IMG/VR virus record: IMGVR_UViG_2713896779_000023
Source: a virus
Lineage: Duplodnaviria; Heunggongvirae; Uroviricota; Caudoviricetes
Strand: one strand, 5' to 3'
Length of the DNA: 9,351 bases
Shown here: in pieces, positions 537-8,355 of the stretch
How the letters are laid out: every line of letters starts with the position of its first letter
How positions within the stretch are numbered: the stretch's first letter is position 1
The notes under the pieces: generated by a model
Seen by the model: only the letters and a program-made list of their open reading frames with translations
Databases searched by the model: none
Told to the model about the DNA's origin: nothing
Position numbers and translations under genes: made by a program

Positions 537-1175
537 TTACCAGTCAATCCAGAGTGGACCGTGTTCAGCGTAAATATAACTGTACACATCCAGATTATAT
601 TTGTGGTCTGTTAAGAACAGGCCGCAAATACATGCCGAAGCTTCCAGTGCAGCGGCTCTGTTACTGAATAACCATGTAGCAACATTCCAGCGTTTTTCTG
701 CATCCCAGTCTTTCTCAAGGCCTGATACCATGAAGAAACCGTTAGTGTTGCCATCAAATAATTCTGTTTCCAAATTTTTAAGCAATGCCTGATGGACTCT
801 TGCCAGGTATTCCGCCGGAATTTCGCCACGAATTCTGATGAGATTGTCATAAACAAACATGTTCCCCGCATATGGCGATTTTTCTTTCTTGTTTTTTAAA
901 CCAGCATCATGAGCAAACTGATCAATTTCTTCTTCCGTTGGTTTCGTATTGATGTTTTGCGCTGTCGTTTCTGCAATTTTATTTGCCACACTCTCTGAGT
1001 CGTGTTTATTTATAGACGCACAGAAATACAATCCGGTAAACGCATCGCGCACATTACGAGCCATATTATCAGTGTCTTTTTTCGTTACCGATTCCAATTC
1101 AAGTTCGTTCAGACGATGACGAAGTGTGTGTGCTGCAATCTCCTGGATTGAAGGAGGTAAATCTTTAAATTCCAT
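537..1175 (-). CDS. hypothetical protein Y, 212 aa (216 aa if the upstream ATG at 1187 is used); second gene of a two-gene module downstream of the cI-like repressor
   Basis: Long minus-strand ORF in the track. GAGG at 1182-1185 sits 6 nt before the ATG at 1175. The translation is protein-like (mixed charged and hydrophobic) but I recognise no family. Composition is AT-rich relative to the replication genes. Confidence 0.65.
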   Translation of the reverse strand: MEFKDLPPSIQEIAAHTLRHRLNELELESVTKKDTDNMARNVRDAFTGLYFCASINKHDSESVANKIAETTAQNINTKPTEEEIDQFAHDAGLKNKKEKSPYAGNMFVYDNLIRIRGEIPAEYLARVHQALLKNLETELFDGNTNGFFMVSGLEKDWDAEKRWNVATWLFSNRAAALEASACICGLFLTDHKYNLDVYSYIYAEHGPLWIDW

Positions 1176-1186
1176 CGTCAACCTCA

Positions 1187-1411
1187 TCAGTCAGTGTTTC
1201 TGGCTAACCAGCGACGCGCGCCAGCTTCAGTTTTAAACGTTTTGCTTTTGGTATACGTCATCGCGGTGAACGTACCGTCCTGGTTGGGGAACACGCCACA
1301 TACCAGAGATTCGTTGTTGCCAAGATTGAGCGTATCCATGTTGACCTCATTTCCCCTTAACGCCGGGGTAGCGGAACAAAAACCTGCTGCATAGTTATTA
1401 AAGTTGAACCC
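1187..1411 (-). CDS. hypothetical protein X, partial (5' end lies in or beyond the N run 1412-1461); first gene of the module
   Basis: The minus-strand frame is open from the gap edge (1411) to TGA at 1187-1189, which overlaps the ATG at 1185-1187 of the next gene (TGATG). Hand translation gives ...GFNFNNYAAGFCSATPALRGNEVNMDTLNLGNNESLVCGVFPNQDGTFTAMTYTKSKTFKTEAGARRWLARNTD. There is an internal ATG at 1337-1339 with GAGG 5 nt upstream. It is absent from the ORF track only because it is short or interrupted. Confidence 0.45.
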   Translation of the reverse strand, partial: GFNFNNYAAGFCSATPALRGNEVNMDTLNLGNNESLVCGVFPNQDGTFTAMTYTKSKTFKTEAGARRWLARNTD

Positions 1412-1461: not shown

Positions 1462-1667
1462 TACGCCTCGGGCTGGCTACTTAACCCCTGACCACTGCCT
1501 GGTAACTCGAAGTATTGCCCTGCATTCTGTGGGGCGGGGTGAGGGAATGAATGAAGTTTAGAAAAACGAACATTTAAGGTCAATGTTTTTTTATCAAAAC
1601 ATTTTAAGCAGGCAGCTGTTACGCCATCACTACGATGGCATACAGTTAATCAAATAGATGAGGTTGG

Positions 1668-2306
1668 TTAAATATCTTGTTGAATTTTAAAGCATACTCC
1701 CAATATGCAAGATAGATCATCCAGCATAATTGAAGGGTAGCGAGGATTCGTGGGGACTAAAAGAATATCCGGCCCTTCTATCTCCAGTTTGCGAATGACA
1801 GGCGTTGTGGTCCCTTTGGGTAAGGCAAGGACAATATTTCCTGGTTGTACGATTCGATCGGGATCAACAAAAACTGTTGAACCATTTGGGATGGAAACTC
1901 CACCACCAGATGTCGACATACTGTCACTCTCTAGAACAACAGCAAAGGTATTGGCCGGGATTTCTCCGACAAGCTGCACACAAGAGGTTATTGAGGAATT
2001 TTTCATATAATCACTCCAGCTTGCTGCCTGCTGAAGTGATAGTAGCGGAACCGTTTTTATCGGCGGTAAAGATAGATCAAGCGAATCACCTGTATTTAAC
2101 TCTCCTCCATTAAGAAGCCAATTTTCGTTTACTTTCAATATCTTTGCCAGTGAACTTATGTAACGCGAGGACGGCGCTCCTCCACCGTTCATCCATTGAC
2201 TTACGGAGCCTTTTGATGCGCCAGTGGCATTGACAAGGTCTTTGCCTTTCAAGTTTAGCGCATGCATACGTTGGGTTATGCGTTCAGATATTGTTTGCTT
2301 GTTCAT
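1668..2306 (-). CDS. cI-like prophage repressor (N-terminal XRE-type HTH, C-terminal S24 LexA-like autopeptidase)
   Basis: 212-aa ORF. The N-terminus has an HTH pattern (GKDLVNATGASKGSVSQWMNG). The C-terminus has the Ser...Lys signature of S24 peptidases (ESDSMS ... PVIRKL). It is transcribed divergently from a cro-like gene. No SD precedes the ATG at 2306, consistent with a leaderless PRM-type transcript. Confidence 0.85.
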   Translation of the reverse strand: MNKQTISERITQRMHALNLKGKDLVNATGASKGSVSQWMNGGGAPSSRYISSLAKILKVNENWLLNGGELNTGDSLDLSLPPIKTVPLLSLQQAASWSDYMKNSSITSCVQLVGEIPANTFAVVLESDSMSTSGGGVSIPNGSTVFVDPDRIVQPGNIVLALPKGTTTPVIRKLEIEGPDILLVPTNPRYPSIMLDDLSCILGVCFKIQQDI

Positions 2307-2397
2307 GTTTTGATTTTAAAACACAGATGGTTTTGTTTCTTGACTTTCTTTGGTTTTGATTATTAAACTTTTGGCGTTCAGTTTTATGGAGCGACTC
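2307..2397. promoter_or_regulatory. divergent promoter/operator region between the cI-like and cro-like genes
   Basis: Three direct repeats (TGTTTTG at 2306-2312, GGTTTTG at 2329-2335 and 2352-2358) spaced about 23 bp apart. Inverted repeat TGTTTT-N6-AAAACA at 2306-2323. Rightward -35 TTGACT at 2340-2345 with AT-rich -10-like hexamers (TATTAA/TAAACT) at 2361-2369. Leftward -10-like TAAAAT (minus strand, 2318-2313) ends 6 nt before the cI ATG. Confidence 0.5.
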
Positions 2398-2640
2398 ATG
2401 AAAAAATCAGAAGTATTAGGCTATTTTGGCGGAGTTGTTAAAACAGCCGCCGCTCTAGGAACGTCAAAAACCACAGTCAGCATGTGGGGGGAAGACGTTC
2501 CGTGGAAATGGGCGTTGCTAATTCAGGCAGTCACTGCCGGGGCGCTCAAATATGAGTTACACATACCGACGGTTGTCATTCCCGATTCTGATCATAATCC
2601 GCCTTCTAACCAAGGGGGGATTCATGAAAATCAAGCATGA
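2398..2640 (+). CDS. Cro/YdaS-like small HTH regulator (80 aa from ATG 2398; ORF-track start 2350 is probably too far upstream)
   Basis: GGAG at 2388-2391 lies 6 nt before ATG 2398. HTH-like segment VVKTAAALGTSKTTVSMW. Position and orientation match cro. Overlaps the next gene by 17 nt. Confidence 0.7.
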   Translation: MKKSEVLGYFGGVVKTAAALGTSKTTVSMWGEDVPWKWALLIQAVTAGALKYELHIPTVVIPDSDHNPPSNQGGIHENQA

Positions 2641-3049
2641 ACACATCCGCATGGCGATGAATGCCTGGGCGCGTCCTGATGGCGAAAAAGTTCCGGCAGC
2701 TGGAATAACCCAGGCTTATTTTGAGTTGGGTATGACGTTTCCTGAACTGTACGACGACAGCCATCCGGAAGCCCTGGCTCGCAATACCCAGAAAATTTTC
2801 CGCTGGATAGAGAAAGACACCCCTGATGCAGTTGAAAAAATGCAGGCTCTGTTACCGGCGATCGAAAAGGCAATGCCGCCTCTGCTGGTGGCCCGTATGC
2901 GCAGTCACAGCTCTGAATATTACCGTGAGATCGTCGAACGGAGGGATCGGCTGGTGAAAGATGTGGATGATTTTGTCGCAGCGGCGATCGCCTGGGGCAC
3001 CCTGACTAACAGTGGGGGGCAGCCTGGTAATGCTGTTGTCGTGCATTGA
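2624..3049 (+). CDS. YdaT-like protein at the cII position (141 aa)
   Basis: AGGGGGG at 2612-2618 precedes ATG 2624. The N-terminus MKIKHEHI matches my recollection of the Rac prophage YdaT family. It follows a YdaS/Cro-like gene. Confidence 0.6.
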   Translation: MKIKHEHIRMAMNAWARPDGEKVPAAGITQAYFELGMTFPELYDDSHPEALARNTQKIFRWIEKDTPDAVEKMQALLPAIEKAMPPLLVARMRSHSSEYYREIVERRDRLVKDVDDFVAAAIAWGTLTNSGGQPGNAVVVH

Positions 3050-3117
3050 CCAACAATATTCATGCCGGATTTCTTCCGGATGTTCGAGGGTAAAGTTCGG
3101 TATCAGAAGAGGTGAGT

Positions 3118-4185
3118 ATGGCTAATGCCTGGCTCAGATTGTGGCATGACATGCCAAATGACCCCAAGTGGCGAACGATTGCCAGGGTATCAGGACAGCC
3201 AATCGCAACAGTGATGGCAGTGTATATCCATCTTCTGGTGAGTGCGTCACGAAATGTCACGACATGTCACGGCGTGTCACTACGTGGTCACATTGATGTC
3301 ACGACGGAAGATTTAGCAAGTGCGCTTGATGTGACGGAAGACGTAATTGATTCAATTTTGCATGCAATGCAGGGGCGGGTTCTGGATGGTGACCTTATTT
3401 CCGGATGGGAAAAACGTCAGGTGCTGAAAGAGGACAATGGTAACGTTTCGCAAACGGCAAAATCCCCGGCAGAGCGCAAGAGAGCGCAGCGGGAGCGGGA
3501 AAAGCTGCGGAAACATAATGCTGATTGTCACGATGAGTCACGACGTGTCACGCATCTGTCACGACAAGTCACGACAGATAAAGATACAGATAAAGATACA
3601 GATAAAGATACAGATAAAGATACAGATACAGAATTAAACCCCACACATAACGCGCGCGAGAGTATTCCGACCAGTGAGTCGAATGGTGCGCCGTTGCAGA
3701 CAGCCGAACCTGAATACCTGGACGGCCTGAGCGAACCGATCGGGAAATTTCCGATGACTACTGTCTGGCAGCCGTCGCCGGATTTTCGACAACGGGCAGC
3801 AGTGTGGGGTATGGCTCTGCCTGAGCCGGAATTTACACCTGCTGAGCTTGCCGCATTCCGGGATTACTGGATGGCGGAGGGGAAGGTTTTCACGCAGGTT
3901 CAGTGGGAGCAGAAATTTGCCCGCCACGTGCAGCACGTCAGGGCACAGGTAAAACCAGTCAGCAAGGGGGGAAGCCATGCAGCATCAGGTGGCACGGCAT
4001 CACGGGCAGTTCAGGAAATCCGGGCTGCACGCGAACAGTGGGAACGTGACAACGGATTTATCAGCAACGGAAACGGCCTGGAAGCTGTGGGAGCTCATGG
4101 GGGAGGTGTATTCGAACCGCTGGACTCAGAAGAACGGGGCCGCACCTTCGAAGCTCTGGATTGCCCAGATTGGTGCGATGACTGA
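3118..4185 (+). CDS. replication initiator (lambda-O-like role) with internal iterons and a (DKDT)n linker
   Basis: GAGG at 3109-3112 lies 5 nt before ATG 3118. The gene sits immediately upstream of a P-like gene. It contains two clusters of about 10-bp-periodic GTCACGAC repeats and a 12-bp tandem repeat, an architecture like ori-lambda inside O. The N-terminal sequence is not obviously lambda O, so the family is uncertain. Confidence 0.7.
   Translation: MANAWLRLWHDMPNDPKWRTIARVSGQPIATVMAVYIHLLVSASRNVTTCHGVSLRGHIDVTTEDLASALDVTEDVIDSILHAMQGRVLDGDLISGWEKRQVLKEDNGNVSQTAKSPAERKRAQREREKLRKHNADCHDESRRVTHLSRQVTTDKDTDKDTDKDTDKDTDTELNPTHNARESIPTSESNGAPLQTAEPEYLDGLSEPIGKFPMTTVWQPSPDFRQRAAVWGMALPEPEFTPAELAAFRDYWMAEGKVFTQVQWEQKFARHVQHVRAQVKPVSKGGSHAASGGTASRAVQEIRAAREQWERDNGFISNGNGLEAVGAHGGGVFEPLDSEERGRTFEALDCPDWCDD
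3244..3308. repeat. iteron cluster 1: about 6 copies of (T)GTCACGAC-like motif at roughly 10-bp spacing
   Basis: cgtcacga 3245-3252, tgtcacgac 3255-3263, tgtcacgg 3265-3272, tgtcact 3275-3281, ggtcaca 3285-3291, tgtcacgac 3298-3306. Confidence 0.6.
3526..3576. repeat. iteron cluster 2: 5 copies of (T)GTCACGAC at 10-11-bp spacing; candidate replication origin
   Basis: tgtcacga 3527-3534, gtcacgac 3538-3545, tgtcacg 3547-3553, tgtcacgac 3557-3565, gtcacgac 3568-3575; immediately followed by an A-rich tandem repeat. Confidence 0.65.
3577..3630. repeat. perfect 12-bp tandem repeat GATAAAGATACA x4 plus a partial GATACA
   Basis: Read directly from the sequence; encodes DKDTDKDTDKDTDKDTDT inside the initiator gene. 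Confidence 0.9.
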
Positions 4186-4639
4186 ACAGCAAATCCGTCT
4201 GGTGTGCCGTCAGTGCATGGACCGCTGCCGGGCGGGTGAAACGTGGCCCCCGGACCTGGCTGAGTTTGTTGCGCTGATTTCGGAGAGTGGGGCAAATCCA
4301 TTTGGTCTTACGGTGGATGCCGTGATGGAAGAGTACCGGCGCTGGCGCAATGAATCCTGGCGATACGACGGGAGTGATAAATACCCGTGGCCACAGCCTG
4401 TGCTGTACCACATCTGCCTCGAAATGCGTACCAGAGGGATTGAGCGCCAGATGACGCAAGGTGAGTTAAAACGACTTGCGGAACGGCAACTGACGAAATG
4501 GGCAAAGCATGTTGGTAACGGGATGAGTGTTCCGCCAGTGCGACGACAACTGGAAGGGGCGAAACACCCGCAAGGGCCAACGCCAATTGAACGGCTGAAA
4601 CAGGAATACGAACGCCGGAAGGCAGCTGGTTTTATTTGA
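3977..4639 (+). CDS. lambda-P-like replication protein (helicase loader); start uncertain (3977, 4097 or 4178)
   Basis: By-eye similarity to lambda P in several blocks (ETWPPDLAEFVAL, YPWPQPVLYHICLEMRTRG, GELKRLAERQLTKWAKHVGNG). AAGGGGGG at 3964-3971 lies 5 nt before ATG 3977. Overlaps the initiator gene in a different frame. Confidence 0.7.
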   Translation: MQHQVARHHGQFRKSGLHANSGNVTTDLSATETAWKLWELMGEVYSNRWTQKNGAAPSKLWIAQIGAMTEQQIRLVCRQCMDRCRAGETWPPDLAEFVALISESGANPFGLTVDAVMEEYRRWRNESWRYDGSDKYPWPQPVLYHICLEMRTRGIERQMTQGELKRLAERQLTKWAKHVGNGMSVPPVRRQLEGAKHPQGPTPIERLKQEYERRKAAGFI

Positions 4640-4672
4640 ATCTGAGAAACGATTTTGTCGGAGGAAATATTA

Positions 4673-5389
4673 ATGGAAACCGTATTTGACGCACTGAAAG
4701 CACTGAAAAAAGCCTCTTCACAGGTAGTGGCATCGCGCCTTGGAATCAGCCGCGAAGATGCTGTCAACGAACTGTGGAAACTGAAGCGCCGTGGTGAAGC
4801 GGATAACAAGGGGTCGATGTGGTGGCTGACTCAGACTGGTGAAAGTGAACCAGTGTCACCGGTACCGAAAGTGACAGCGCAAATGCTGACTGAGGCGATT
4901 GAACATCATGGCCCACAAACGGCGGATGAGCTGGCACTGATGTTCGGGATTACCTCCCGCCGGGCGAATTCATCACTGGCCATGGCAATCAGCAAAGGGC
5001 GTCTGATTCGCGTGAATCAGGGCGGTAAATTTCGGTACTGCATACCGGGCGCTGATTTACCGGCAGAGCCGAAAGCCGCATCCATAACGGAAACGGATGG
5101 TAAAGCCTTTCCTCAGCCAGCAGGTGTTGCGTTACCAGTCGGGGAAGCGGAAACACAGGAAGAAATAAAAACGGAAAGTGTGGCGGTCACAGTGCAGTCA
5201 CAGCCGTCGTTCACCAGAAAGCATCCGGATGGTCTGATTTTACCATCGCTGCATGTGGCTAACCGCGAGCTGCGCCGGGCAAAAGGTCAGGTTCAGAAGT
5301 GGGAGCGAGTCTGCGCCGCGCTGCGGGAGCTGAACAAGTGCCGGGATATTCTCCGGGATATTACCGCCACCAGAGAACAGCAGCGGTGA
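4673..5389 (+). CDS. hypothetical protein with two winged-helix-like segments (238 aa from ATG 4673; ORF-track start 4655 is TTG)
   Basis: GGAGG at 4659-4663 lies 9 nt before ATG 4673. HTH-like segments [17 protein letters not shown] and [19 protein letters not shown]. Function unknown. Confidence 0.6.
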
Positions 5390-5703
5390 GTGGGTGGAAG
5401 ACGTGGTGCCGGGCGGAAATCATGATACTCCGGCAGTGTGCGGGAACGATGAAGGTAAAAAGCGTTGGCGCACTTATCGGACGAACTGAAGCGGCAGTGA
5501 GAACGAAGGCACGGGAGCTGGGCATCAGCATGATGTTACGTGGTGATTTTCACCCGTCGGCAAAATATTCTCAGCGTGATATTGAGCTGGCGCGGCAACT
5601 GCATCAGAGAGGCATGCAAAGAAGGGAAATTGCCAGAAAATTAGGCATGCCGCTGCGCATAGTGAATAACTACGTTTATTTCGACAGGAGGGTGTCTGCG
5701 TGA
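5386..5703 (+). CDS. small HTH DNA-binding protein; start ambiguous (GTG 5386, ATG 5422 or ATG 5449)
   Basis: GTG 5386 overlaps the upstream stop (GTGA). HTH-like segment [19 protein letters not shown]. All candidate starts have weak SD sequences. Confidence 0.5.
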
Positions 5704-5927
5704 AAATCCTGTATCAGGATTACGGCCCGGTGGGGCAGGTGGTTATCAGCAGTACTGTAATGGAGTTTCGGAAGCATAACCGTGTGGTGGATGCTGTGCT
5801 GTTAACCTGTCCGGGGATATCGGCGAGTCGTGCAGGTGTGTTTATTATGAAGACGAAATTATATGGCAGTAAGGCGTGGATAAAGAAGGCGTATCGTGTA
5901 GCGTTGCAGGAGGTTAACAGTGAGTGA
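5700..5927 (+). CDS. hypothetical protein (75 aa)
   Basis: GTG start at 5700 overlaps the upstream stop (GTGA), suggesting translational coupling. No recognised motif. Confidence 0.5.
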   Translation: MKILYQDYGPVGQVVISSTVMEFRKHNRVVDAVLLTCPGISASRAGVFIMKTKLYGSKAWIKKAYRVALQEVNSE

Positions 5928-6231
5928 AATTAAAGAAATGCCGGTAGTTCGTGACGGATATGGCTACTGGACACATCCTGAATATGAAAAATTCTGTGAT
6001 GGTCGGGAATATATTTCAACGGAAGAGTTTAACGCCTGGATGGAGGAAAATAATCTTCAATACGTCCTCTGCTTCAGAGATGAAGGATGTGCTGACCTTG
6101 ATGCGTGTGATGCTGATATTTCTGCATGGGAACCGGAACGACCAGAGGGCGATGGCTGGTTTATTGGTTCCATTCATGATACGGAAGATGGCCCGGTTTG
6201 TGTCTGGTTGCGAAATAAGGCTGAAGCATAA
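5920..6231 (+). CDS. hypothetical acidic protein (103 aa)
   Basis: AGGAGG at 5907-5912 lies 7 nt before GTG 5920; overlaps the upstream stop; acidic, Trp-rich; no recognised motif. Confidence 0.6.
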   Translation: MSEIKEMPVVRDGYGYWTHPEYEKFCDGREYISTEEFNAWMEENNLQYVLCFRDEGCADLDACDADISAWEPERPEGDGWFIGSIHDTEDGPVCVWLRNKAEA

Positions 6232-6335
6232 AGGCGATAAACCAACTAACAACTAAATACTGAAGATTTAAATCAGAAACGATTTTTATTAAATCCTTAA
6301 CCGGAGGGATTCCTGCACCCTCAGAACATCAGGAG

Positions 6336-6353
6336 GCCGCCCGAAAGGGCGGT
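6336..6353 (+). promoter_or_regulatory. GC hairpin with GAAA tetraloop placed between the SD and the start codon of the next gene
   Basis: CCGCCC (6337-6342), GAAA loop, GGGCGG (6347-6352). AGGAGG at 6331-6336 and ATG at 6359, so the linear spacing of 22 nt would shrink to a functional distance if the hairpin forms. Confidence 0.4.
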
Positions 6354-6358
6354 AAGAA

Positions 6359-6577
6359 ATGAAACATTATTTAGAAAAAAATTACCCACGAAAGAGCAGA
6401 ACAACAGAGTTTCTGTTTTTCATTCTGTTTATAGTGTTGATGATACCGATATCCCCGCTATTACTGGTCTGGATAATTGGAAGGACATTTGAACCAGTTA
6501 TTGAGCTATATACCGATGTGACATGGGAATCATTCAGCGCACTGCACAATAAAATTAATCCGTATAAGGAAAACTGA
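6359..6577 (+). CDS. small membrane protein (72 aa, one predicted TM helix)
   Basis: Hydrophobic stretch FLFFILFIVLMIPISPLLLVWIIG. The stop is followed 1 nt later by the ATG of the next gene. Confidence 0.5.
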   Translation: MKHYLEKNYPRKSRTTEFLFFILFIVLMIPISPLLLVWIIGRTFEPVIELYTDVTWESFSALHNKINPYKEN

Positions 6578-6578
6578 T

Positions 6579-7136
6579 ATGAGCACTATTACCAGAGAAC
6601 GCGCGGAGATTAAATCATACATCACAGGCTTCCTGAGCGACTCGGCGCACGATAACAAGTCTTCAGACAGCCTGCTGGCTAATGTGTTTCGTATCGCGCT
6701 GGCATCACTGGAAGCAGAGCCGATAGCAATGGTAGTGCCTGATGAAATGGATTTGCTTACCTGCCATCTCGACGGTGTAACTAAAACATATGCTGATGGC
6801 TGGAACGCCTGCCGCGTCGCCATGCTTCAGGCCGGAAACTTTCGGGAAAATAAGAATTCGTCAACCAACAATTTTCGGGAAATCTCGGAAACGTCAACCA
6901 GATCTCCGATAACTCTGGATGGCTGGATAAGCTGTACTGAGCGAATGCCTGAAAAGAGCCAGAACGTGCTTATTTCGATGAATATCGATAGCGAGGCTGG
7001 GCCATTAATATATTCCGCACGCTATCTCGGAGGCACGTTCCGGCGCGGAGGTATAGCAGTTAGTCCGGGTAATGATCTTAGGCAAGCAACCCACTGGATG
7101 TCGCGACCAGAACCGCCGCAGGAGGTGAATCAATGA
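6579..7136 (+). CDS. DUF551-like prophage protein (185 aa)
   Basis: C-terminal pattern DGWIS...ERMPEK...THWMSRPEPP matches my recollection of the DUF551 conserved region. AAGGA precedes the ATG. Contains an internal imperfect tandem duplication. Confidence 0.6.
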   Translation: MSTITRERAEIKSYITGFLSDSAHDNKSSDSLLANVFRIALASLEAEPIAMVVPDEMDLLTCHLDGVTKTYADGWNACRVAMLQAGNFRENKNSSTNNFREISETSTRSPITLDGWISCTERMPEKSQNVLISMNIDSEAGPLIYSARYLGGTFRRGGIAVSPGNDLRQATHWMSRPEPPQEVNQ

Positions 7137-7216
7137 CCTGGCCTGAAGCATTCACAACGGTAGGAATTGCGATGGCGGTGGCGCTGGTGGTGTATTCGAT
7201 TTGCCGCTGGGGATAA
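7133..7216 (+). CDS. candidate 27-aa hydrophobic micro-protein (MTWPEAFTTVGIAMAVALVVYSICRWG)
   Basis: ATG 7133-7135 overlaps the upstream stop TGA 7134-7136 (ATGA). Single hydrophobic helix. Below the ORF-track length cut-off. Confidence 0.35.
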   Translation: MTWPEAFTTVGIAMAVALVVYSICRWG

Positions 7217-7314
7217 AAACGGTTTGCGGGAAAAGGATAGTTAAGTAGAATTGCTGCGGGTGCTTGAGGCTATCTGCCTCGGGCATGAACACCAACGGCA
7301 GATAGAGAAAAGCC

Positions 7315-7364
7315 NNNNNNNNNNNNNNNNNNNNNNNNNNNNNNNNNNNNNNNNNNNNNNNNNN
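7315..7364. other. run of 50 N (masked or unresolved sequence)
   Basis: Literal n characters. Confidence 1.
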
Positions 7365-8305: not shown

Positions 8306-8355
8306 NNNNNNNNNNNNNNNNNNNNNNNNNNNNNNNNNNNNNNNNNNNNNNNNNN
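8306..8355. other. run of 50 N (masked or unresolved sequence)
   Basis: Literal n characters; the frame relation across it is undefined. Confidence 1.

Follow-up and report, generated by a model that had tools for sequence, protein, structure and literature searches.

Casjens reportedly argued in 2003, from gene context, that the phage proteins YdaS and YdaT are equivalents of Cro and CII and not a toxin-antitoxin (TA) pair. Gene context led Jobling (2018; PMC5917428) to the same reading. Jurenas et al. (2021; PMC8630535) showed that, in the cryptic prophage CP-933P, the repressor PaaR2 and YdaS cross-regulate the PR and PRM promoters; YdaT was not toxic there, and PRE933P, a leftward promoter where ydaS meets ydaT, was silent unless YdaT activated it. 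The structure of YdaT combines a POU-like helix-turn-helix (HTH) domain with a four-helix-bundle tetramer, and its site was identified as TTGATT-N6-AATCAA by footprint and ITC (Prolic-Kalinsek et al., 2023; PMC9986795). The corresponding Rac box, ATGATTCATGAAAATCAA (ATGATT-N6-AATCAA), lies across the ydaT start codon; YdaT-dependent leftward activation there reaches up to 29-fold and raises racR expression, Rac and CP-933P YdaT cross-activate, and Rac YdaT is toxic when over-expressed, through rcsA (Wons et al., 2025; PMC11879457). A Cro/CII-analogue reading is already published for near-identical relatives of the locus described here.

This locus lies in a viral DNA of 9,351 nucleotides (Caudoviricetes; IMG/VR record IMGVR_UViG_2713896779_000023), which we call the window. 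A first-pass annotation had described a YdaS/YdaT-like pair at the cro/cII position and had favored a role in the lysis-lysogeny decision over a TA role. Comparison by blastn indicates that the whole window is colinear (99.5-100%) with prophage Sp11 of O157:H7 Sakai (ECs_2207, ECs_2208, ECs_2209), and also with a prophage of strain 493/89 in which int, xis, and exo are intact. Over positions 1600-3110, it matches chromosomal prophages of E. coli O121 and O157:H7 at 100% identity; of 5426 complete E. coli genomes, 1034 contain at least 80% of this 1.5-kb query. The block of repressor gene, cro, and ydaT is also found, at 93% DNA identity, in isolated phages such as vB_EcoS-640R1, where ydaT is labelled "activator protein cII." By analogy with characterized homologues, the two genes very probably encode the switch regulators of a lambda-like prophage of pathogenic E. 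coli, one of the Cro type and the other of the CII type (YdaT), and not a TA pair.

The immunity region and its first two rightward genes

In its gene, operator, and promoter content, the window contains a complete lambdoid immunity region, composed of the following features:

1583 to 1555, leftward: PL-like promoter from the promoter scan, TTGACC-17-TAAACT, overlapping the OL-type operator
1585-1600: OL-type operator, GTTTTTTTATCAAAAC, left (downstream) of the repressor gene; exact GTTTT-N6-AAAAC, of a repeat family shared with the OR copy
1668-2306 (-): cI-type repressor gene, 212 aa; N-terminal HTH and C-terminal S24 self-cleaving peptidase domain (PF00717, 8e-13, and HTH_3)
2307-2322: OR3-type operator, GTTTTGATTTTAAAAC, abutting the cI start codon; exact GTTTT-N6-AAAAC
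2331-2346: weaker middle operator copy at the OR2 position, GTTTTGTTTCTTGACT, overlapping the PR -35; direct repeat with a spacing of about 23 nt (22-24)
2340-2369 (+): PR-like promoter, TTGACT-18-TAAACT, 9/12 in the consensus scan, overlapping the middle and right operators
2353-2368: OR1-type operator, GTTTTGATTATTAAAC, overlapping the PR -10; repeat copy with one mismatch to GTTTT-N6-AAAAC
2398-2640 (+): cro, 80 aa, ATG to TGA, MKKSEVLGYF...; GGAG 6 nt upstream
2624-3049 (+): ydaT, 141 aa, ATG to TGA, MKIKHEHIRMAM...; G-run Shine-Dalgarno upstream
3112-4185 (+): O-like replication initiator gene; DnaT-type domain PF17948 (1.6e-17), phrog_1408, internal iteron-like repeats
4178-4639 (+): P-like helicase loader gene; PF06992 (1.3e-15), phrog_109; start equivalent to that in RefSeq

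The order on the window is therefore a lambda-CI-like repressor gene, operators, cro, ydaT, and then O/P-like replication genes. The repressor gene is divergent and its product bears an S24 self-cleavage domain; operators are repeated between cI and cro and to the left of cI, accompanied by PR and PL promoters; and the replication genes lie immediately 3′ of the cII position. All six annotated phage genomes that were compared (a seventh fetched record carried no annotation) share the repressor (-), cro (+), ydaT (+), replication (+) synteny, and several of them name the second rightward gene cII. The longest open reading frame for the P-like gene would begin at 3977. The repressor and its lambda counterpart (3bdn) align from end to end (E 4.9e-10), and the catalytic dyad is conserved, with Ser (ESDSM) and Lys (IRKL) aligned to those of 3bdn; Ala-Ala occupies the position of the Ala-Gly cleavage site of lambda CI. 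No cIII-like gene was found in the window, and a scan between ydaT and the O-like gene identified no terminator-like site of an OOP-like antisense RNA. Folding of the RNA from 3040-3115 was no better than that of shuffled sequences (z = -0.03), and no Rfam family reached its gathering score anywhere in the window.

A scan of the window for GTTTT-N6-AAAAC at no more than one mismatch returned three matches against 0.42 expected, all flanking cI; in the middle copy at 2331-2346, the left half alone matches the motif. Together with the PR-like promoter, these operators bear out the earlier placement of the pair as the first two rightward genes from the operator region. We infer that the operators are targets of both CI and Cro, for which the two proteins most likely compete. 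The consensus scan, and the place of the PR-like promoter relative to the operators and cro, point to it as the promoter that drives cro, ydaT, O, and P. A leftward TAAAAT at 2318 to 2313, inside OR3, ends 6 nt before the cI ATG and suggests a PRM-like promoter that would give a leaderless cI mRNA; leaderless PRM transcripts are documented in lambda and CP-933P (PMC8630535). Exact TTGATT half-sites are also present within OR3 and OR1.

The two genes overlap by 17 nt (2398-2640 and 2624-3049), as the first-pass annotation had described, and the RefSeq annotation of genomes with 100% identity has both CDSs, overlapping in the same way. A search with the Pfam YdaS and YdaT models, which had been put forward as a check on the pair, separates its members: the 141-aa protein passes the YdaT cut-off, and the small protein fails that for YdaS. 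With the YdaS family (PF15943), the small protein scores 14.6 bits against a cut-off of 30 (E 0.029); instead, it reaches P22_Cro (PF14549) at 57.7 bits against a cut-off of 30.2, matches the P22 Cro structure 1rzs over residues 1-53 (E 3e-8), and also matches phrog_409. Its identity to Rac YdaS is 26% (E 0.004), and BLASTP against CP-933P YdaS returned no alignment. By these profile and structure matches, the small gene is a P22-Cro-type cro, outside the YdaS family. The YdaS-like assignment of the small gene is thereby replaced and, since the protein is a P22_Cro rather than a YdaS, its reading as cro is strengthened. The Cro domain, at residues 1-53, is followed by a 27-aa tail, the coding DNA of which also carries the candidate PRE-like -10 and the YdaT box described below. 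DicC was considered as an identity for the small gene and rejected, with a score of 31.2 bits against a cut-off of 130 for NCBIfam NF007282, a weak match (E 2e-7) to that model, and an empty BLASTP search against K-12 DicC. An alternative TTG start at 2350 appears in the list of open reading frames; because transcription from PR is predicted to begin downstream of that codon, 2398 is preferred for cro.

The assignment of the 141-aa protein to the YdaT family held. This protein reaches PF06254 (YdaT_toxin) at 38.2 bits against a cut-off of 21 (E 2e-9, residues 48-100), matches phrog_163, "CII-like transcriptional activator," over residues 1-125 (E 3.6e-47), and aligns full-length and ungapped with PDB entries 8bt1 (CP-933P YdaT; E 2e-79) and 3c4r (E 1.2e-75). 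Its homology to 8bt1 (87% identity) predicts a POU-like HTH N-domain and a long C-terminal tetramerising helix. Recognition-helix residues R53, F59, R60, and W61 are conserved in alignment with Sp12/CP-933P YdaT, with R60 and W61 of helix alpha3 invariant across the YdaT alignment, and the helix ALARNTQKIFRW is identical to that of CP-933P. A search with the lambda CII family (Pfam Phage_CII) returned no match to the 141-aa protein at E up to 10; position and function make YdaT a CII analogue, though it is neither a detectable homologue nor a member of that family. Its C-terminal GG...VH tail is conserved. Experiments on homologues suggest that the window YdaT would likewise bind DNA, form tetramers, activate a leftward promoter, and lack toxicity.

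The YdaT box and the cro-ydaT junction

The junction of the two genes contains a variant of the published YdaT site:

2617-2634: YdaT box variant, GGGATTCATGAAAATCAA, with the ydaT ATG in its spacer; 16/18 against TTGATT-N6-AATCAA (PMC9986795, PMC11879457)

The box covers both the Shine-Dalgarno and the ATG of ydaT. Its core, GATTCATGAAAATC, is matched exactly (14/14) at the ydaT ATG and occurs once in the window, against 0.12 occurrences expected; further full boxes at no more than three mismatches were at chance level across the window, including the cI-cro intergenic region (6 found, 6.0 expected). The left half-site, which is the promoter-proximal one, reads GGGATT and so has two mismatches. 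At half-site position 2, the window and phage 640R1, which share the same cro, have G, while the other 8 of 10 aligned loci have T; T is likewise found in 78 of 90 tabulated loci (80 IMG/VR contigs, the window, and reference loci). Among these 90, the loci with this cro type have the GG variant in 9/9 cases, and the variant is otherwise rare, the combination of GGGATT with the same cro being found in isolated phage vB_EcoS-640R1 and in 8 viral contigs. Co-variation of the GG box with YdaT residues H17R, K27G, and K30Q was considered and rejected: 640R1 has a GG box yet retains the common H17, K27, and K30. Incomplete repeats are bound weakly by CP-933P YdaT, with a Kd of about 53 uM (PMC9986795). 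Positions 2617-2634 are predicted to be a YdaT site by likeness to the sites of homologues, and the GG variant may lower the affinity.

The two mismatches in the promoter-proximal half-site also bear on whether the region is an intact-looking remnant, without a working switch in this element, in which the box has degenerated and the prophage is defective in some hosts. Pseudogenisation of int and exo in Sakai Sp11, and the replacement of Ala-Gly by Ala-Ala at the repressor cleavage site, are consistent with such a remnant. However, every open reading frame of the region is intact, with 99.5-100% conservation among many genomes, the box retains its invariant core, the same pairing of cro and GGGATT recurs in vB_EcoS-640R1 and the 8 viral contigs, and strain 493/89 retains intact int, xis, and exo. 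These data make a remnant very unlikely, though the switch may be vestigial in some hosts, given the int and exo pseudogenes of Sakai Sp11.

The cro-ydaT overlap occupies 2624-2640; across 89 loci, it is 17 nt in 55 and 4 nt in 30. Within ATGAAAATCAAGCATGA, the conserved 5′ end of ydaT, each of the other two frames has a TGA, at nt 2-4 and nt 15-17, so that any cro recombined in front of it would end inside the cassette. In a 10-locus alignment, similarity begins abruptly at the box, and the cro sequences upstream of it are unrelated, with their proteins at 17-42% identity. The dicC and ydfX genes of K-12 Qin likewise overlap by 17 nt, YdfX being a truncated YdaT homologue (38% identity, E 9e-9).

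This arrangement bears on the proposal that the pair is a type II TA module, with YdaT as toxin, the small HTH protein as DNA-binding antitoxin, and stabilisation of the prophage as the outcome. Two small overlapping genes are found in many TA operons, Pfam and RefSeq retain the name "toxin YdaT," and Rac YdaS and YdaT inhibit growth when derepressed (PMC5700377, PMC5700373, PMC11879457). However, exchange of the YdaT partner among unrelated Cro families (17-42% identity) would be unexpected for a cognate antitoxin, and the partner in the window is a P22-Cro homologue. YdaT itself is a tetramer that binds DNA at a specific sequence and has a POU-like HTH fold (8bt1; PMC9986795); the CP-933P protein, 87% identical to that of the window, showed no toxicity (PMC8630535), and the toxicity of Rac YdaT is explained through transcriptional activation of rcsA (PMC11879457). 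A 2010 test, as cited in PMC5917428, found no TA behavior, and PADLOC returned no defence or TA model for either protein. The TA proposal is largely refuted, and we give it next to no credence. The earlier preference for lysis-lysogeny regulators is upheld by family, context, box, and the experiments on homologues.

A candidate YdaT-dependent leftward promoter

A promoter that YdaT would activate is predicted from a hexamer within the 3′ part of cro:

2596 to 2591 (-): candidate -10, TATGAT, of a YdaT-dependent PRE-like promoter; predicted start near 2584

When the leftward strand is read from the outer edge of the box (box at index 1-18) over 110 nt, TAnnnT begins at index 39, 40, or 41 in 16/16 representative loci, or 20-22 nt from the box, with 0-2 occurrences at each of the other positions. 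These 16 representatives comprise roughly nine unrelated cro 3′ ends. The window and Rac share TATGAT as the -10-like hexamer, and CP-933P has TACAAT; in sigma-70 -10 elements, T1, A2, and T6 are the most conserved positions. Taking the start 7 nt downstream of the hexamer places the box centre at -41.5 in the window and Rac and at -42.5 in CP-933P, and a box centre near -41.5 is the classical position for a class-II activator. The -35 region is poor (CCCCCC in the window), as would be expected of a promoter that depends on an activator.

On the basis of these spacings, we estimate roughly an even chance that the YdaT box lies at about -41.5 of a leftward PRE-like promoter with a start near 2584. 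A box-proximal promoter fits the extent of the fragment in the PRE933P reporter: by its primers (Table S3, PMC8630535), this fragment starts immediately to the right of the box and takes in the box and about 75 bp of the ydaS 3′ end. The predicted start differs from the published placements: in CP-933P, the YdaT-dependent start is drawn inside the box/OM (PMC9986795), and in Rac, activation is assigned to PracR4, about 190 bp away (PMC11879457). The box-proximal placement of the -10 is an addition of this analysis; the Cro/CII reading is the published view. A leftward TTAACA-18-AATACT at 2441-2412, about 190 bp from the box like PracR4 in Rac, is retained as a weak alternative, because a 9/12 match occurs at chance frequency. 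A conserved A...TA upstream of the box was considered as a YdaT half-site (OL) and rejected, as the loci share no TGATT-like consensus there, and the leftward TAnnnT alone is shared. Inspection of the sequence before cI showed no Shine-Dalgarno that would serve a PRE-type transcript.

The location of the ydaT Shine-Dalgarno and ATG beneath the box might also indicate that YdaT is mainly a repressor or autoregulator acting on its own ribosome-binding site and start codon, limiting ydaT and O/P without activating repressor synthesis. YdaT is termed a "repressor," with its box over a transcription start, in PMC9986795; in Rac, YdaT has a further binding region between racR and ydaS, over PydaST (PMC11879457); and the TTGATT half-sites in OR3 and OR1 of the window are exact. 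However, expression of ydaT from PydaST in Rac is unchanged by box binding, while leftward expression is up to 29-fold higher (PMC11879457), and CP-933P YdaT leaves PR, PRM, and PL reporters unaffected while activating PRE933P (PMC8630535). In the window, the cI-cro intergenic region has no full box beyond chance, and the -10-like hexamer, conserved at the spacing of a class-II promoter, favors activation. It is therefore very unlikely that YdaT acts mainly as a repressor or autoregulator.

In the preferred reading, of Cro-type and CII-type switch regulators, the window would contain the rightward half of the immunity switch of an Sp11-type lambda-like prophage. After infection or derepression, PR (2340-2369) would give a transcript of cro, ydaT, O, and P, while the lambda-CI-like repressor and Cro would compete for the operators at OR (2307, 2331, 2353) and OL (1585). 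YdaT would stand in for lambda CII, binding as a tetramer to the inverted repeat over its own start codon (2617-2634) and recruiting RNA polymerase to the leftward promoter within the cro tail. The resulting leftward RNA, antisense to cro, would cross OR into cI and provide a burst of repressor, by which lysogeny would be established or re-established.

More broadly, the box, the leftward -10 at 20-22 nt from it, and the first 17 nt of ydaT may together constitute a single portable "establishment cassette," compatible with whichever cro precedes it, with YdaT as a class-II activator, a box centre at -41.5 to -43.5, and a box-proximal promoter in all members, including Rac and CP-933P. We consider this generalization, with its corollary that one prophage could push another toward lysogeny, to be evenly poised between right and wrong. 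The 4-6 YdaT-bearing prophages of one O157 genome have a near-identical box; the YdaT of one such prophage could therefore push its neighbors toward lysogeny.

Implications and comparison with known systems

The useful yield of this analysis is the P22-Cro correction, a warning about annotation, and a refined promoter placement. The label "toxin YdaT" in RefSeq and Pfam misleads surveys of TA and defence systems, and the conserved -10 position is a concrete prediction for the start of the YdaT-dependent promoter. The same YdaT establishment module is combined with many unrelated cro and repressor genes, and an enterohaemorrhagic E. coli genome has several copies of it, some of them beside prophages with type III effectors; this recurrence within genomes makes cross-talk of co-resident prophages at lysogeny establishment plausible.

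The YdaT of CP-933P/Sakai Sp12 (8bt1) is 87% identical to that of the window over its full length, and its recognition helix differs in the last two residues, which are L62/D63 there and I62/E63 here; in the YdaT alignment, the window protein alone has the substitutions H17R, K27G, and K30Q. The CP-933P ydaT gene also follows cro and precedes replication genes, with its box likewise across the start codon and a TAnnnT hexamer 20-21 nt leftward of the box. However, its repressor is PaaR2, which has no peptidase domain and is followed by the paaA2-parE2 TA genes, whereas that of the window is a lambda-CI-like S24 repressor. Similarly, the CP-933P cro is of the YdaS type with a 4-nt overlap and its box half-site is TTGATT, in contrast with the P22-Cro-type cro, 17-nt overlap, and GGGATT half-site of the window.

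Rac of K-12 has the same gene order for YdaS and YdaT as the window, the box ATGATTCATGAAAATCAA, and the same TATGAT 20 nt leftward of that box; both YdaT proteins are CII analogues, though at only about 31-32% identity. Rac YdaS belongs to a different Cro family from the window Cro, its gene is separated from ydaT by a 22-nt gap in place of the 17-nt overlap, RacR is unrelated to the window repressor, and Rac YdaT is toxic via rcsA. The 17-nt overlap is shared with dicC-ydfX of Qin. P22 Cro matches residues 1-53 of the window Cro and lacks the 27-aa C-terminal tail.

Several features set the window apart from lambda. Lambda CII reads a direct TTGC-N6-TTGC repeat, whereas YdaT reads an inverted repeat with 222 symmetry (PMC9986795). 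The window is without nutR/tR1 between cro and ydaT, as these genes overlap, and no equivalent of cIII or OOP was seen in it. The likeness to lambda lies in the arrangement of the switch: in both, the second rightward gene would encode a tetrameric HTH activator of a leftward promoter at the cro-cII junction, with the activator site overlapping the -35 region and the transcript running antisense to cro and into cI.

Repressor annotation and protein tails

1668-2306 (-): repressor ORF of 212 aa with an HTH and an S24 peptidase domain
about 2018-2023 (-): repressor residues 'QQAAS', with Ala-Ala at the self-cleavage position
3010-3049: YdaT C-terminal tail, after the tetramerisation helix
2560-2640: Cro tail, residues 54-80, 27 aa, Pro-rich, beyond the P22-Cro domain

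The repressor's DNA-binding domain is unannotated in both RefSeq (WP_001416688.1) and the Sakai genome (ECs_2209), because just the C-terminal 112 aa of the 212-aa protein were called. Alignment with lambda repressor indicates that the Ser/Lys dyad is retained, whereas the Ala-Gly self-cleavage site of the lambda protein is replaced by Ala-Ala; SOS inducibility might differ.

The YdaT tail is variable in sequence, yet its GG and terminal His (...VVH) are invariant in an alignment including homologues down to 31% identity. Lambda CII carries an FtsH signal at its C-terminus; by analogy, and speculatively, the YdaT tail may act as a protease degron. Within the DNA encoding the Cro tail lie the YdaT box (the inverted repeat across the ydaT start codon) and the PRE-like -10; the sequence of this tail is probably set by regulatory DNA rather than by protein function.

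Repeats in the O-like gene and N-runs

3246-3291, 3527-3575 and 3574-3632: repeat stretches in the O-like gene
1412-1461, 7315-7364 and 8306-8355: N-runs, each exactly 50 N

The O-like replication initiator gene contains iteron-like 10-bp GTCACGAC(A/G)T repeats in two clusters, a placement comparable to that of the lambda ori within O, as well as a 12-bp ACAGATAAAGAT array of 4.9 copies that codes for (DKDT)n. Within 1462-7314, the window and the colinear reference locus L001 show one length difference, of 24 nt, which probably falls in the 12-bp array; the indel itself was not located. The three N-runs stand for 14, 145 and 34 nt of sequence in Sp11 and 493/89, which are elsewhere colinear with the window. 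The 145-nt stretch lies directly upstream of the Hok/Gef CDS and extends into its start.

YdaT in co-resident prophages, Qin and Rac

L012 2847-3351: dicC-ydfX, E. coli K-12 Qin prophage, 17-nt overlap
L002 about 3145-3150: leftward TATGAT in Rac, with the YdaT box 20 nt to its right
1187-1339 (-): DUF1391 (YdfA/YdaF-like) gene, first in the leftward operon
537-1187 (-): 216-aa protein of unknown function, phrog_2151, leftward operon

Parts of a 1.5-kb query matched four to six places per E. coli O157:H7 genome. In Sakai, the adjacent prophages Sp11 and Sp12 each encode one YdaT (87% identical) and carry near-identical boxes; cross-activation between such co-resident O157 prophages is therefore plausible, by analogy with that demonstrated for Rac and CP-933P YdaT (PMC11879457).

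The 17-nt overlap of dicC and ydfX in Qin is the same as that of cro and ydaT in the window, and YdfX, an uncharacterised protein of 96 aa, is homologous to YdaT (38% identity, E 9e-9) but truncated. In Rac, the leftward TATGAT and its distance to the YdaT box are identical to those in the window; YdaT activation in Rac has been assigned to PracR4, about 190 bp away (PMC11879457). In the complete prophage, dicB lies further left of the DUF1391 and phrog_2151 genes, and these two genes likewise begin the leftward operon in both Qin and Rac.
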